This document shows, piece after piece, positions 39,059 to 43,237 of a stretch of 64,000 nucleotides of DNA. The DNA is from a virus. The stretch's first letter is position 1, and the number at the start of each line of letters is the position of its first letter. The notes beneath the pieces are model-generated. The model searched no databases. It worked only from the letters and a program-made list of their open reading frames with translations, and had not been told where the DNA came from. Position numbers and translations under genes: made by a program. The stretch lies in the IMG/VR virus record IMGVR_UViG_3300000956_000002, positions 1 to 64,000 of that record. One strand, written 5' to 3'.

Positions 39059-39781
39059 TTACGGAAACTTCTGGTCATGGGTTTTGGGGTTGGGTGCCTG
39101 AAAGAATTCTGAATGCAGTTGCAGCCACGATTGGAACTTGTCCATTTCCTGATGCCGTAAGGCGGTCCAGTCGATTGGCCACCCCATCAACCATTCGCTC
39201 AACTGTGGGTTCTGCTTTCGACCCACATACGTTCCACGGCGTAAGGCTTTCTTCCTGGCGTTGGAACCGCCGCAATTGTCCCGGTCGCTCGCCCGCGGGG
39301 TAGGCCAAGACGAACAATCGTCGTCGCACATGTGGAGCACCAACGGAACATGCTGAAAACACTCCCCATCGCGCATCCATCCCCATTCCGGCAATGTCAG
39401 CAAGGACTCGGTTGAGTCCTCGAATAGCAAGGTCTGACGAGTTTTCAATGAACGCGAATCGTGGTCGAACTTCGCGAATGATCCGCGCGAACTCTCCCCA
39501 CAATCCTGAACGTTCACCTTCGATTCCGACACGGCATCCAGCCGGGCTGATATCCTGGCATGGAAATCCGCCGCAAACGATATCAACGCCGCGCCATGGC
39601 TTTCCGTCAAAGGTTCGAACGTCGTCCCAAATCGGGAACCATGGCAGGATTCCGTCTCGCTGGCGTTGGAGGAGGATTTGGCGGCAGTAAGGTTCAATTT
39701 CGACCGCACAAACAGTTCGATGCCCGAGAAGCATTCCGCCGAGGATTCCACCGCCGCATCCTGCAAATAGGTGTAACTCAT
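39059..39781 (-). CDS. overlapping alternative-frame MTase partner polypeptide
   Basis: 240-codon open frame nested on the MTase; WPTPRASD and NPQLSEWLMGWPIDWT (motif IX-like). Confidence 0.7.
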   Translation of the reverse strand: MSYTYLQDAAVESSAECFSGIELFVRSKLNLTAAKSSSNASETESCHGSRFGTTFEPLTESHGAALISFAADFHARISARLDAVSESKVNVQDCGESSRGSFAKFDHDSRSLKTRQTLLFEDSTESLLTLPEWGWMRDGECFQHVPLVLHMCDDDCSSWPTPRASDRDNCGGSNARKKALRRGTYVGRKQNPQLSEWLMGWPIDWTALRHQEMDKFQSWLQLHSEFFQAPNPKTHDQKFP

Positions 39782-39785
39782 TCAC
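39075..39785 (-). CDS. DNA cytosine-C5 methyltransferase, catalytic polypeptide
   Basis: LFAGCGG, GGFPCQD, ENS, HxRxR, GNGQVP; no motif IX. Confidence 0.9.
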   Translation of the reverse strand: MNELHLFAGCGGGILGGMLLGHRTVCAVEIEPYCRQILLQRQRDGILPWFPIWDDVRTFDGKPWRGVDIVCGGFPCQDISPAGCRVGIEGERSGLWGEFARIIREVRPRFAFIENSSDLAIRGLNRVLADIAGMGMDARWGVFSACSVGAPHVRRRLFVLAYPAGERPGQLRRFQRQEESLTPWNVCGSKAEPTVERMVDGVANRLDRLTASGNGQVPIVAATAFRILSGTQPQNP

Positions 39786-40251
39786 CCCGCTCCTCCCTGA
39801 CGCACTGTTCGTAGGCGGCGCCGAAGATTTGGGCGGATTCAACGCCGTTGGTTTCATTGTCGAGATTGGTGATCGTTATCACGGCGCCTTCCTGGCCTTC
39901 TGGCACGTCGATGATTTCAAAACTCCCCCTTTTGATGTGCTTCGAGGAATCGTTTGCGGGCAGCAATGAGGCAATCCAAGATTGTGGTGTATCCGTTATC
40001 CCCATCGCTACGGCCGTCCGATACGCGGAGTGCAACTGCGACTCCAAAGATCGAATTGCCGCGTTTAGCCACGCCTTTGTGTCGTCGTTTTGGAGGATGT
40101 ATCGCTGGCCGTTTTTCCTCATGCCGATCTTCTTGTCGTTTTTCTTCGACGGGACTCGGCCCAGGTTGCGGATGTGAAGAACCAGCGGCTCCGAGGTTTC
40201 GCTGGATAAACGACTCACTGGCGTTTGGGAATTTGGCGAGGATGGATTCAC
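39778..40251 (-). CDS. RusA-like resolvase, frame A (N- and C-terminal motifs)
   Basis: VPSKKN...AW; NDS..I...EGAVITI; lacks DxDN. Confidence 0.6.
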   Translation of the reverse strand: MNPSSPNSQTPVSRLSSETSEPLVLHIRNLGRVPSKKNDKKIGMRKNGQRYILQNDDTKAWLNAAIRSLESQLHSAYRTAVAMGITDTPQSWIASLLPANDSSKHIKRGSFEIIDVPEGQEGAVITITNLDNETNGVESAQIFGAAYEQCVREERGE

Positions 40252-40258
40252 GAGTCAT
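39917..40258 (-). CDS. RusA-like resolvase, frame B (central catalytic motif)
   Basis: VAVALRV..RSDGDNGYTTILDCL matches RusA RRDLDNLQKAAFDAL spacing. Confidence 0.55.
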   Translation of the reverse strand: MTRESILAKFPNASESFIQRNLGAAGSSHPQPGPSPVEEKRQEDRHEEKRPAIHPPKRRHKGVAKRGNSIFGVAVALRVSDGRSDGDNGYTTILDCLIAARKRFLEAHQKGEF

Positions 40259-40362
40259 CGGTGTAAAAATTTCAATAGGACGAACCAAGCGAAAGCCACG
40301 ACCGGTAGTGCAAGGATCACCAGGCAGAGAATCGCGAGAATGTTTTTGATGGTGTTCATGGC

Positions 40363-40827
40363 TTAAAATGGAACGTCATCTTCGGCGTCAGGTGGTGTGT
40401 CATCCGACGGCGGTGGTGGAGTTGGTCGCGCGGGAGTTGATCTACCTGTCGGCACGCCGGCAGTCGGTGGTCGCGGCGAACTTGGCCGTTCCGAAGAGGC
40501 GGATTGTCGATCGAGAAACTGAATCGAGTCGCCAACGCATTTCAGTTTCGTGTAGGTCTTTCCGTTGGACTCCCACGAATCGAGTTTCAGTCGAGCATCC
40601 ACGTCAACGAGCGAACCGGCTCGGCAGTATTGCGAAATGGCTTCCGCGGTTTTTCCGAAGAAATCGACTTCGACAATGGCGATCTCTTCTTTGTCCTGGC
40701 CTTTGTAATTGTAGGAGCGCTGAGTCTCGATCGAGATCGTCGTCAGCGTCGTCTGGCCGACAGGTTTACTAACTGGCGCTTGCGTGAGGACACCAAGCAG
40801 GGAGACGCGATTTCGGGAGGGTTTCAT
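40363..40827 (-). CDS. ssb: single-stranded DNA-binding protein
   Basis: NRVSLLG, FGKTAE, RLKLDSWE, C-terminal EDDVPF. Confidence 0.92.
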   Translation of the reverse strand: MKPSRNRVSLLGVLTQAPVSKPVGQTTLTTISIETQRSYNYKGQDKEEIAIVEVDFFGKTAEAISQYCRAGSLVDVDARLKLDSWESNGKTYTKLKCVGDSIQFLDRQSASSERPSSPRPPTAGVPTGRSTPARPTPPPPSDDTPPDAEDDVPF

Positions 40828-41934
40828 TTATTCTTTTCGTTTCAACTGTGGTTCCGGTTTCTCGCCGACCTCGACGCACCCGTCTAAAATCTGATCCATC
40901 ATTTCGTCCAGCGCCTTGCCGTAAAGCCCCGTCGCTTTCCAGATCAGCCCTTTGAGCCCACGCGCTTCCTCGCCGTGCTTCTTCGTTTCCTTCTTCGCCT
41001 CGCCCTTCGTGATGCCGCATTCCTGCTGGAAATCTTTGAGCGTCACGCCCAGAGCTTTCACGCGTTCAAATACCTCCGGCAATTCGACGATGGTTTCACG
41101 TGGTGTGCCGTCCTTCAGAAAATAACCAGGCACGTCCTCGTTGGCTTTTAGACGCCTTTTGGCTTCAGCGCGCAAATCGTTCACGATCGCTTCGATGCGT
41201 GGAATGAGCCCAAGATGGACTGAAAGTTCAGCGCCGGTTAGTGCTGGAATTGTTGACGTATCTGTTCTCGATACAGCCAAATTTAGATTCAAGCGTTCAG
41301 GACAACGGAGGCGCGCGCGGCAATACTTGCATTGGCGTTCACCGGGAACCCGCGGCGCATCCGGTATCTCGGCCGCAGCGATGATCTCCTGAATCTTCAG
41401 CAGCGCAGCGCCAGCGGTTTCCAGCGTGTAGGTCGCCGTCTCTTTGATGGCCCCGAAGCGCGGGATAATCGCGACCGTTACCTCAGCAACCCCGTATTTG
41501 TGAATCACGAGGATTGCCAACGTCGCCAACTGCGGATTCTCTGGCGCTGTCGTGACCGGCAGAAACCCGGATTTGAAATCGATGCACAGCGCTTTTCCGT
41601 CCTTCAAATAAACGCGGTCAGGCTGGCCGGAGAAGTCGTCGTTAAACCAGATTCGCTCTTCGGCGATGAAGTTGTTCGTATCAAACCCATGCCGCTCCAC
41701 GAGTTGATGCGCCTTGCGGCTCATGTGCTCGTAGGTGGATTGTTCTTCGCTAGACAGTTCGAGTAGCGCCTCAGTGTCACCCGCCAAGGCCGCGTGGATT
41801 CGTATCCCAGATTCCTTCACGTCCTCGGCGGCGTCGAGTTCTGGAAGTCCCTCCTGAGCATTGCGCGATCCAGGGCAGAGATATGCCTGCTCCACGGCAC
41901 TCGCGCTCATTTTTCCTTGACGTGGGTCGCTCAT
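40828..41934 (-). CDS. PD-(D/E)XK Cas4-like nuclease (DUF2800-like)
   Basis: SAS..CPGS, GQPD, IDFKSG, QL, QCKYC...CP. Confidence 0.8.
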   Translation of the reverse strand: MSDPRQGKMSASAVEQAYLCPGSRNAQEGLPELDAAEDVKESGIRIHAALAGDTEALLELSSEEQSTYEHMSRKAHQLVERHGFDTNNFIAEERIWFNDDFSGQPDRVYLKDGKALCIDFKSGFLPVTTAPENPQLATLAILVIHKYGVAEVTVAIIPRFGAIKETATYTLETAGAALLKIQEIIAAAEIPDAPRVPGERQCKYCRARLRCPERLNLNLAVSRTDTSTIPALTGAELSVHLGLIPRIEAIVNDLRAEAKRRLKANEDVPGYFLKDGTPRETIVELPEVFERVKALGVTLKDFQQECGITKGEAKKETKKHGEEARGLKGLIWKATGLYGKALDEMMDQILDGCVEVGEKPEPQLKRKE

Positions 41935-41935
41935 G

Positions 41936-43237
41936 TTATTTCGCCACCATCCCATCTTCAATGACTACGGAAACCTCTCCGCCGGTTGAAACGCGCTCCA
42001 TCCATACCTGCGCGTCGTTCTTGGCTGCGATGTCGGCAACCATGGCCAAGCTTTCCTCGTCGAGAAGCGAGCCGTCCCGAATAAGGAGCACGCGCAATTT
42101 CGGATTCAATGCGAGCCCAATGGCGATCGATACTTTTGTCTGGTCAGCGGAACTTGCCTGAGAAAATGGAATGCCATTGAAAACAACGTTTCCGCTCGCG
42201 TCGAAACTGAGTCCGGGAATCGGATACTTCGCGTCGGATATCGCCTTCGTTTTTTCAGCTTCAATGGCTTCGAGGCGTGCGGTCAGATCGTCCGCCTTCT
42301 TTTGTTTTTCAGCGTGCTTCTGAGCGGTTGTGGCTCTCTCTTTATTCTTGCGGACCTTCTGGTTTGTTTCGGCAGCCGTGTTGGCTTTGGTTACGAACGG
42401 CGCGAGGTCGATATCCACCAAAGCAGCAACCTCTGCTTCCGTTACAGCGATTAATTTCTTTTGCTCGTCAATATCCTCGACTGCGACGGCCCGCTGGGTT
42501 TCCAGTTCTTTGATGGCCTGGACGAGTTCTTCGATTTGTGCGCGTTTGTCCGAAATTTGTGAGTCAAATGTTGCGAGTCCGCGTTCACTATTCGCAGCGT
42601 CGATTTTTGATTGTTCAAGGCGGGCTCGCCGTCGGGCGTTCAGCGCATTCTTCTCCGATGCTGCTTGCTGCTCCTTAAGGATATCAGCCGTAGAAACTTC
42701 CTCGTCAGGAACGCCGTCGAATTTCGGGTTCGCATCGAGGGCGATCTTGAGAGCTTTCGCTTCCCGATTTACTGCTGTTCGTTCGTCGTAAAGCGACTTG
42801 TATTCGGTATCCTGTTTCGAAAAGTCGAGGCCGACCAATCTGCGAAGCGTTTCCGCCTGGGTGTCAGCGCGGCGGGCGAATTCCAAAGGGTCGAAGCTGA
42901 GTGTTCCGACAAGCTTATCAAGAATAGACTGCGGGCTCGGAAACTTAGCTCCTTCCTTATTTGTGACGACGAGGTTGGTTCCGCCAGCAGCGGTGAACGT
43001 TCTCTTCACGATCAACTCGCCAAGGTCGATCACAACCTCCGCGTTCGGCTGACCGTCGCGCACGGGCTTCTGTGGAAGAGTTGAACCTCCGCCAAGCCCA
43101 TACATTATCGAGTCGAGGACCGACGACTTCCCTTGGCCATTCCTTCCGCCAATGACGACGACGTTTCCATCCGGTGTGATTTCAACCGCAGAAAGACGTT
43201 TAACGTTCTGCGAGTGAAGCCTAATTATTTTGCTCAT
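41936..43237 (-). CDS. AAA/SMC-like ATPase
   Basis: GRNGQGKSS, central coiled coil, LIRDGSLLD. Confidence 0.82.
   Translation of the reverse strand: MSKIIRLHSQNVKRLSAVEITPDGNVVVIGGRNGQGKSSVLDSIMYGLGGGSTLPQKPVRDGQPNAEVVIDLGELIVKRTFTAAGGTNLVVTNKEGAKFPSPQSILDKLVGTLSFDPLEFARRADTQAETLRRLVGLDFSKQDTEYKSLYDERTAVNREAKALKIALDANPKFDGVPDEEVSTADILKEQQAASEKNALNARRRARLEQSKIDAANSERGLATFDSQISDKRAQIEELVQAIKELETQRAVAVEDIDEQKKLIAVTEAEVAALVDIDLAPFVTKANTAAETNQKVRKNKERATTAQKHAEKQKKADDLTARLEAIEAEKTKAISDAKYPIPGLSFDASGNVVFNGIPFSQASSADQTKVSIAIGLALNPKLRVLLIRDGSLLDEESLAMVADIAAKNDAQVWMERVSTGGEVSVVIEDGMVAK

Follow-up and report, generated by a model that had tools for sequence, protein, structure and literature searches.

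We propose that this phage encodes a RusA-type structure-specific nuclease (Holliday-junction resolvase) as two chains, A and B, translated from two overlapping frames of the same strand, a reading to which we give a probability of roughly 0.6 on the basis of sequence comparisons and structure models. Both frames are open, selection alternates between them along the shared DNA, and each chain is homologous to a complementary part of RusA. We infer from these features that both chains are translated, that their translation is coupled, and that A and B assemble into a complex with nuclease activity.

In the proposed mechanism, two polypeptides would be translated from overlapping same-strand frames of a single mRNA stretch. 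Chain A would provide the first strand with its PSKKN motif as well as the long helix, along with the last strands, on which the third acidic residue (N100-D101) lies, and would carry a disordered linker in place of the catalytic strand-helix. Chain B would provide that catalytic strand-helix, including the two catalytic aspartates D85 and D87, preceded by a short conserved N-terminal peptide and a disordered linker overlapping the N-domain of A. The two chains would then associate into one RusA-like fold with a composite active site, which presumably dimerises like RusA. Both would probably be made by termination-reinitiation coupling at the stop of the upstream gene.

The locus and its resemblance to RusA

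The window, by which we mean the whole 64,000-nt stretch of DNA that was analysed, belongs to an 80,252-base IMG/VR phage genome with direct terminal repeats, and every feature discussed here lies on its minus strand. The local gene order on that strand is a Cas4/RecB-like nuclease ORF (40828-41961), an SSB-like ORF (40363-40827), a 34-aa hydrophobic ORF (40255-40359), the two overlapping RusA ORFs (A and B), a C5 methyltransferase gene, and a zinc-finger/HNH-like ORF; the flanking genes were named from their translations alone, with PHROG support for the methyltransferase. The 34-aa ORF, lying between the SSB-like gene and the RusA pair, may mainly be an upstream cistron for coupling. The features of the pair are as follows, from its two ORFs to the segments within them and the overlaps at either end.

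39778..40251 (-): frame A ORF, 157 aa, GTG start and TGA stop; N-terminal strand, PSKKN, helix, linker, C-terminal strands and a subfamily-specific C-terminal helix
39917..40258 (-): frame B ORF, 113 aa from ATG 40258, TGA stop at 39917-39919; -1 relative to A
40196..40258 (-): N-terminal peptide of B (residues 1-21, M-TR-E..KFPNAS..F..N), conserved in the B subfamily of the window (alignment with P0058 and P0060)
40027..40191 (-): N-domain of A (residues 21-75), with a strand, G-R-V-P-S-K-K-N, a beta-hairpin and a long helix (secondary structure from AlphaFold2); W61 and S71-Q-L73 invariant
39947..40054 (-): core of B (residues 69-104), with the strand VAVALRV, invariant S80-D81, D85 and D87, T92, and the helix ILDCLIAAR
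39961..40026 (-): linker of A (residues 76-97), of low model confidence and kept stop-free; the stretch that the first-pass annotation had called nonsense-like
39859..39960 (-): C-domain of A (residues 98-131), with P98, N100-D101 (aligned to the DD motif of RusA, D91) and the terminal strand EGAVITI, predicted to pair with the B strand
40070..40072 (-): candidate internal GTG start of B, 17 codons before the S-D motif; made up of the base before the invariant Trp codon of A and the first two bases of that codon
40255..40258 (-): ATGA overlap, in which the TGA of the upstream 34-aa membrane-type ORF overlaps the ATG of B; the GTG of A lies 4 nt after this stop
39778..39785 (-): stop of A and methyltransferase start; the TGA of A overlaps the ATG (39781) of the alternative-frame methyltransferase ORF, and the GTG of the methyltransferase frame lies 4 nt upstream

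The ORF pair proved to be as the first-pass annotation had described it, with both ORFs in place, starts 7 nt apart and the described motifs present. The two ORFs overlap over 335 nt, the third frame at the locus has stops throughout, and an alternative TTG start at 40288 would extend frame B to 123 aa. Frame A contains the first strand, G-R-V-P-S-K-K-N, a helix with W61 and S-Q-L, and, towards the C terminus, N-D-S-S-K-H-I followed by E-G-A-V-I-T-I; over the middle of A, frame B reads VAVALRVSDGRSDGDNGYTTILDCLIAAR. Over the bases of the A N-domain (40027..40191), frame B, kept open, encodes a hydrophilic linker whose sequence is not conserved. Residues 132-157 of chain A (39781-39858, minus strand) form an extra C-terminal helix in the subfamily of the window (H136-155 in the AlphaFold2 model), which is common to the homologues P0001, P0003 and P0004 and missing from the main clade. 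This region overlaps a long upstream extension (ATG 39857) of the methyltransferase ORF.

RusA is a single polypeptide of about 120 aa that forms a homodimer, whereas the locus described here has two overlapping ORFs of 157 and 113 aa. Its relationship to RusA was traced through a set of single-frame relatives found among the related loci (L002, L003, L007, L009 and L039-L042), which carry in one frame PSKKN, the helix, a strand ending in D-R-R-R-R-D-L-D-N, a helix S-V-L-D-L-L-V-D-A-G, L-P-D-D-x-W, and the last strands. Compared with this set by hhalign, the B family aligned over the strand and the DLDN helix (probability 96.7, E 3.3e-10), and the A family aligned over its N- and C-terminal parts, with the A linker falling over the catalytic segment (probability 98.3, E 1.4e-14). 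The profile of the single-frame set in turn matched E. coli RusA (PDB 1q8r) at E 2e-7, and two of its members, L007 (24.5 bits) and L003 (34.1 bits), pass the gathering threshold of 22.8 bits for the Pfam RusA family, PF05866. As judged from these alignments, A and B are homologous to complementary parts of the RusA fold, by a link that is transitive and lies at the profile level only. The resemblance of frame B to the catalytic motif, suggested by the first-pass annotation, is borne out, since the B core aligns to the catalytic strand-helix of the single-frame relatives.

Frame A, frame B and a six-frame scan of the whole 80-kb genome all fell short of the Pfam RusA threshold, and searches of Pfam and PHROGs returned no meaningful family for chain A or chain B. 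Conceptual read-throughs in which the three segments were joined, made for the window (P0007) and for one related locus (L011, P0008), likewise stayed below the Pfam RusA threshold and had no PDB sequence match.

The catalytic acidic residues of E. coli RusA are ones that we take to be D70, D72 and D91. Two invariant residues of chain B, D85 and D87, fall on the DLD of the RusA relatives in the alignment (RusA D70/D72). On chain A, the DD motif of RusA (D91) is matched by D101, with a conservation of at least 90%. The three putative RusA-type catalytic residues are in this way divided between the two chains, with D85 and D87 on B and D101 on A. The first-pass annotation had also remarked that a conserved lysine is replaced by threonine; the position aligned to RusA K76 is indeed T, A or S in B, and the replacement carries little weight, because the lysine is not conserved in the single-frame relatives either, some of which have N-K instead.

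Related loci and selection in each frame

Starting from the A family and then from the B family, scans found both motifs in 35 hits, 25 of them distinct: the window, three metagenome loci and 21 IMG/VR loci. These loci come from independent metagenomes and share 30-60% protein identity, reaching down to about 30%. In all 25, the A and B motifs lie 125-161 nt apart with an identical one-base frame offset and both frames open, which answers the question raised by the first-pass annotation of whether both frames stay open across homologues. Neither of the findings that it had named as speaking against a split gene, single-frame homologues and an unconserved frame B, was made for these loci: every one of them has an open B, with a core in which B is more strongly conserved than A.

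The chain A profile matched 472 cluster representatives at 50% identity, 357 of them at E <= 1e-10. An in-frame catalytic D-R/K-x-x-D-x-D motif was found in none of the best 148 of these 472 representatives, and all of these 148 therefore look like chain A of the split form. The chain B profile matched 53 called protein clusters, all unnamed or "hypothetical" and without any Pfam family; the called B proteins are mostly 105-110 aa long, with a few of 72 aa (P0045 and P0054). An exact-word search with B alone returned only the protein of the window itself, and the B relatives were reached only with the B profile. No match to A or to B was found by tblastn in 50,697 deposited phage genomes, and an A-family scan of bacterial and archaeal genome contigs returned no relative.

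Most of the IMG/VR loci (L011-L035) share a conserved context, seen from about 1.4 kb upstream to 0.5 kb downstream of the pair, in which a DnaB-type replicative helicase gene is followed by the dual-frame RusA and then by a phage SSB-like protein. In this group, the two RusA starts flank the helicase stop codon or overlap it.

Frame-specific selection can be followed in a gap-free alignment of 17 loci. Mean pairwise nucleotide diversity in these loci peaks at the third positions of A codons over the whole stretch that begins with the first strand and ends with the helix. Over SDRRRRDLDGALATI, the peak moves to the third positions of B codons, and the A1/B2 phase there is 0.00-0.13. Over the C-terminal domain, the peak is back at the third positions of A. 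Diversity is lower in all three phases in the two junction zones, as expected if both frames are read there. B-type wobble is also seen in the first 12 codons of B in a subfamily with the N-terminal pattern M.WT..E...Y, while the N terminus of B in the window, of the KFPNAS type, is common to the database proteins P0058 and P0060, with a linker to the core that is not conserved. Together, the switches in diversity and the conserved N-terminal peptides of B show that the selected segments alternate B, A, B, A along the gene.

The description of the middle of A as nonsense-like has to be revised in part. At the amino-acid level it does not hold, as five homologues of the frame A protein (P0001-5) are 53-65% identical to it and conserved through the middle too; this conservation comes only from the constraint of frame B on the same bases.

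Whether the open frames could be a by-product of coding in the other frame was judged from an exact sum over all synonymous codon choices, which gives the chance of a stop-free second frame for one protein at the codon usage of its locus. At 24 of 24 loci, frame A has no stop in the 30-codon B core, an outcome expected with a chance of 0.01-0.29 per locus (mean 0.09); the third frame is open over the same core at four of 24. For frame A, a conservative product, in which each of 11 clusters formed at 75% nucleotide identity contributes only its highest value, is 1e-10, and since the loci are interrelated, such products overstate independence. Frame B is stop-free over the N-domain of A at 24 of 25 loci, with an expected chance of 0.03-0.52 per locus.

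The sole locus with stops in the B linker, of which it has two, is L026 (IMGVR_UViG_3300030060_004561, 1469-1792). Its only possible B start is an internal ATG 17 codons before the S-D motif, which would give a product of about 68 aa. Going by this sequence, not every locus can make the long form of B, and the start assigned to B is provisional. A start-type codon lies 17 codons before the S-D motif at 24 of 25 loci; we considered this as proof of an internal start of B and dropped it, because the codon is mostly forced by the invariant Trp codon of A.

Two chains or another reading

The first-pass annotation had left a choice between a two-chain nuclease and a double programmed frameshift, a pair of possibilities that the data support, and of the two, the evidence favors two chains. 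A single-chain RusA would need a -1 shift from A to B before the catalytic strand and a +1 shift from B to A after the helix, possibly with a third shift from the N-terminal peptide of B into A. Such a product would account for the order of the three or four selected segments, which are collinear with the single-frame RusA relatives, and a conceptual read-through aligns with those relatives in one piece by profile-profile comparison (probability 96, E 3e-9). Heptamers at Lys codons, such as A_AAA_AAG or A_AAA_AAT, occur in a few loci. However, an X_XXY_YYZ heptamer is missing from 15 of the 25 loci, the window included, and elsewhere falls at varying Lys codons far from the junction; no slippery sequence at the frame junction is conserved among the 25 loci. 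Under frameshifting, the stretches that are not read would be free to gain stops, yet A is open over the B core at every locus counted and B is open over the N-domain of A at all but one. Each frame being open where the other is selected favors two chains over frameshifting, as do the conserved N-terminal peptides of B and the start codon that each ORF has of its own. In addition, the bases of the first junction encode conserved residues of both frames, the S-Q-L of A and the conserved strand of B lying on the same T-C-T-C-A-G-T-T-G block, and one shifted chain cannot hold both. To our knowledge, two or three efficient frameshifts within 330 nt would be unprecedented. Weighing these points, we consider frameshifting improbable. 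A broken RusA gene or an assembly error with two compensating indels would be the default reading for one fold spread over two frames in a single sequence, but 25 distinct loci from independent metagenomes, with proteins 30-60% identical, have the same offset and open frames, purifying selection specific to each frame is visible, and the A family comprises hundreds of clusters. Its probability is negligible, and on these comparisons we regard this reading as refuted for practical purposes.

It is also conceivable that chain A, as an incomplete RusA relative, alone keeps the ancestral type of role, for example by binding junctions without cutting them, while B arose by overprinting and does a separate job, perhaps as a regulator or inhibitor. 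This idea would fit the entries of gene callers and databases, most of which contain A without B, and also the N-terminal peptide and long linker of B, which are seen in no RusA. Against it, the selected core of B is the catalytic strand-helix of RusA (DRRRRDLD...D.L), exactly the piece missing from A, and the in-frame catalytic motif is lacking from the best 148 A-family representatives. The structure models bear on the same question. Modeled alone by AlphaFold2 from a 30-row alignment, A has a mean pLDDT of 76, falling to about 54 over residues 81-100 (the linker), and a Foldseek search with this model of A found no PDB match at E <= 0.001. There is, then, no recognizable fold match for A by itself, whereas the complex model fills the gap with B. 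We find an independent B unlikely.

The complex was modeled with residues 20-135 of A and 58-113 of B, each with its own family alignment, and scored 0.78 against 0.00 for the best of three controls, a score that may reflect the model's memory of the single-chain RusA fold. The mark used for such scores is reached by 58 of 80 solved complexes and by 2 of 110 mismatched pairs, and these counts are only a rough guide here, where alignments of our own making were used. The runs share at least 82% of their contacts, with a partner pLDDT of at least 69. The B strand 72-76 is paired with the last strand of A (123-128) in the predicted complex, in which helix 96-104 of B also packs against helix 65-73 of A. 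This co-folding comparison, which the first-pass annotation had suggested, came out in favor of the pair and may only echo the known RusA fold: because A and B correspond to the halves of one solved fold, the score speaks for a RusA-like fit and not for binding.

For the two-chain nuclease, the arrangement of the starts offers a plausible route to joint synthesis. Across the loci, neither the start of A nor that of B is more than about 25 nt from the stop of the upstream gene, and often one of the two overlaps it as ATGA or GTGA. A search at the candidate starts found no Shine-Dalgarno-like motifs marking them. With both starts within a few bases of an upstream stop, we consider termination-reinitiation coupling the probable mode of initiation.

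Implications and comparison with known systems

If confirmed, the RusA pair, which is present in hundreds of phage lineages, would be the second natural case, after M.EcoHK31I, in which overlapping frames divide an enzyme fold, and it would do so to a far greater degree. It would bear on the origin of overlapping genes, pointing to the splitting of an existing fold and not to de novo overprinting, and on same-strand dual coding that gene callers miss, as databases keep chain A or chain B as unrelated, family-less hypothetical proteins. A need for two products might serve to control a nuclease that is toxic when over-made. Fragment complementation and reinitiation into two frames could also be studied in this pair as a compact natural model. 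We see about even odds for a broader proposal, that a large clade of phage RusA-type proteins consists of obligate two-chain enzymes, with fold elements interleaved B-A-B-A, co-initiated at an upstream stop, and that the neighboring C5 methyltransferase in this phage has the same design.

The methyltransferase next to the pair was called dual-coded by the first-pass annotation, and both of its frames have PHROG matches. The C5 methyltransferase frame (39075-39857, minus strand) matches phrog_363, DNA methyltransferase (7e-64), and Pfam DNA_methylase (1e-28); the overlapping frame (39059-39781, minus strand), in full overlap with 39075-39857, matches phrog_1008, "DNA methyltransferase" (9e-20), and phrog_35493. 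Its twin-start design is like that of the RusA pair and reminiscent of the alpha and beta chains of M.EcoHK31I. If the RusA clade and the methyltransferase are both two-frame genes, there may be a recurrent route in which a fold is split by compensating frameshifts and the split is then fixed.

Compared with RusA of the E. coli DLP12 prophage (PDB 1q8r/2h8c/2h8e; PF05866) and its single-frame phage relatives (L003, L007 and L039-L042), the pair has the same order of elements: the P-S-x-x-N strand, the long helix with Trp, the D-R-R-R-R-D-L-D strand, the D..L helix, the DD motif and the terminal strands. The residues aligned to RusA D70, D72 and D91 are kept, and the setting among phage replication and recombination genes is like that of the single-frame relatives. 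Unlike in RusA, the elements alternate between two overlapping ORFs, each with a disordered linker where the other is structured; B has an added N-terminal peptide, neither chain reaches Pfam RusA, and T, A or S takes the position aligned to K76.

Programmed frameshift genes, such as the tail chaperone G/GT, dnaX and prfB, resemble the pair in that two frames of one mRNA stretch feed protein products. In those genes, a single shift takes place at a conserved slippery site and the unused frame is not kept open, whereas here there is no conserved slippery site and both frames are open throughout.

Full-text literature searches returned no description of a RusA encoded in two frames. A mention of a "RusA/RuvC frameshift" in PMC10885494 is not a precedent, as it cites a 1991 paper on ruvC. 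The statement of the first-pass annotation that no such case had been described holds for RusA in the literature searched; as a general principle, the arrangement does have a precedent in M.EcoHK31I. The alpha gene of that methyltransferase contains, in a second reading frame, the coding sequence of the beta chain, which carries motif IX and without which the enzyme is inactive (PMC2836561). In both systems, the first chain lacks a motif that a second ORF supplies from a different frame of the same strand. The two differ in fold and chemistry, and whereas the beta chain of M.EcoHK31I is a single nested piece, the frames of the RusA pair overlap almost completely, with segments that interleave B-A-B-A. 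M.EcoHK31I is nonetheless the closest precedent for the split-frame layout, and the only described case of it found in the literature searched.
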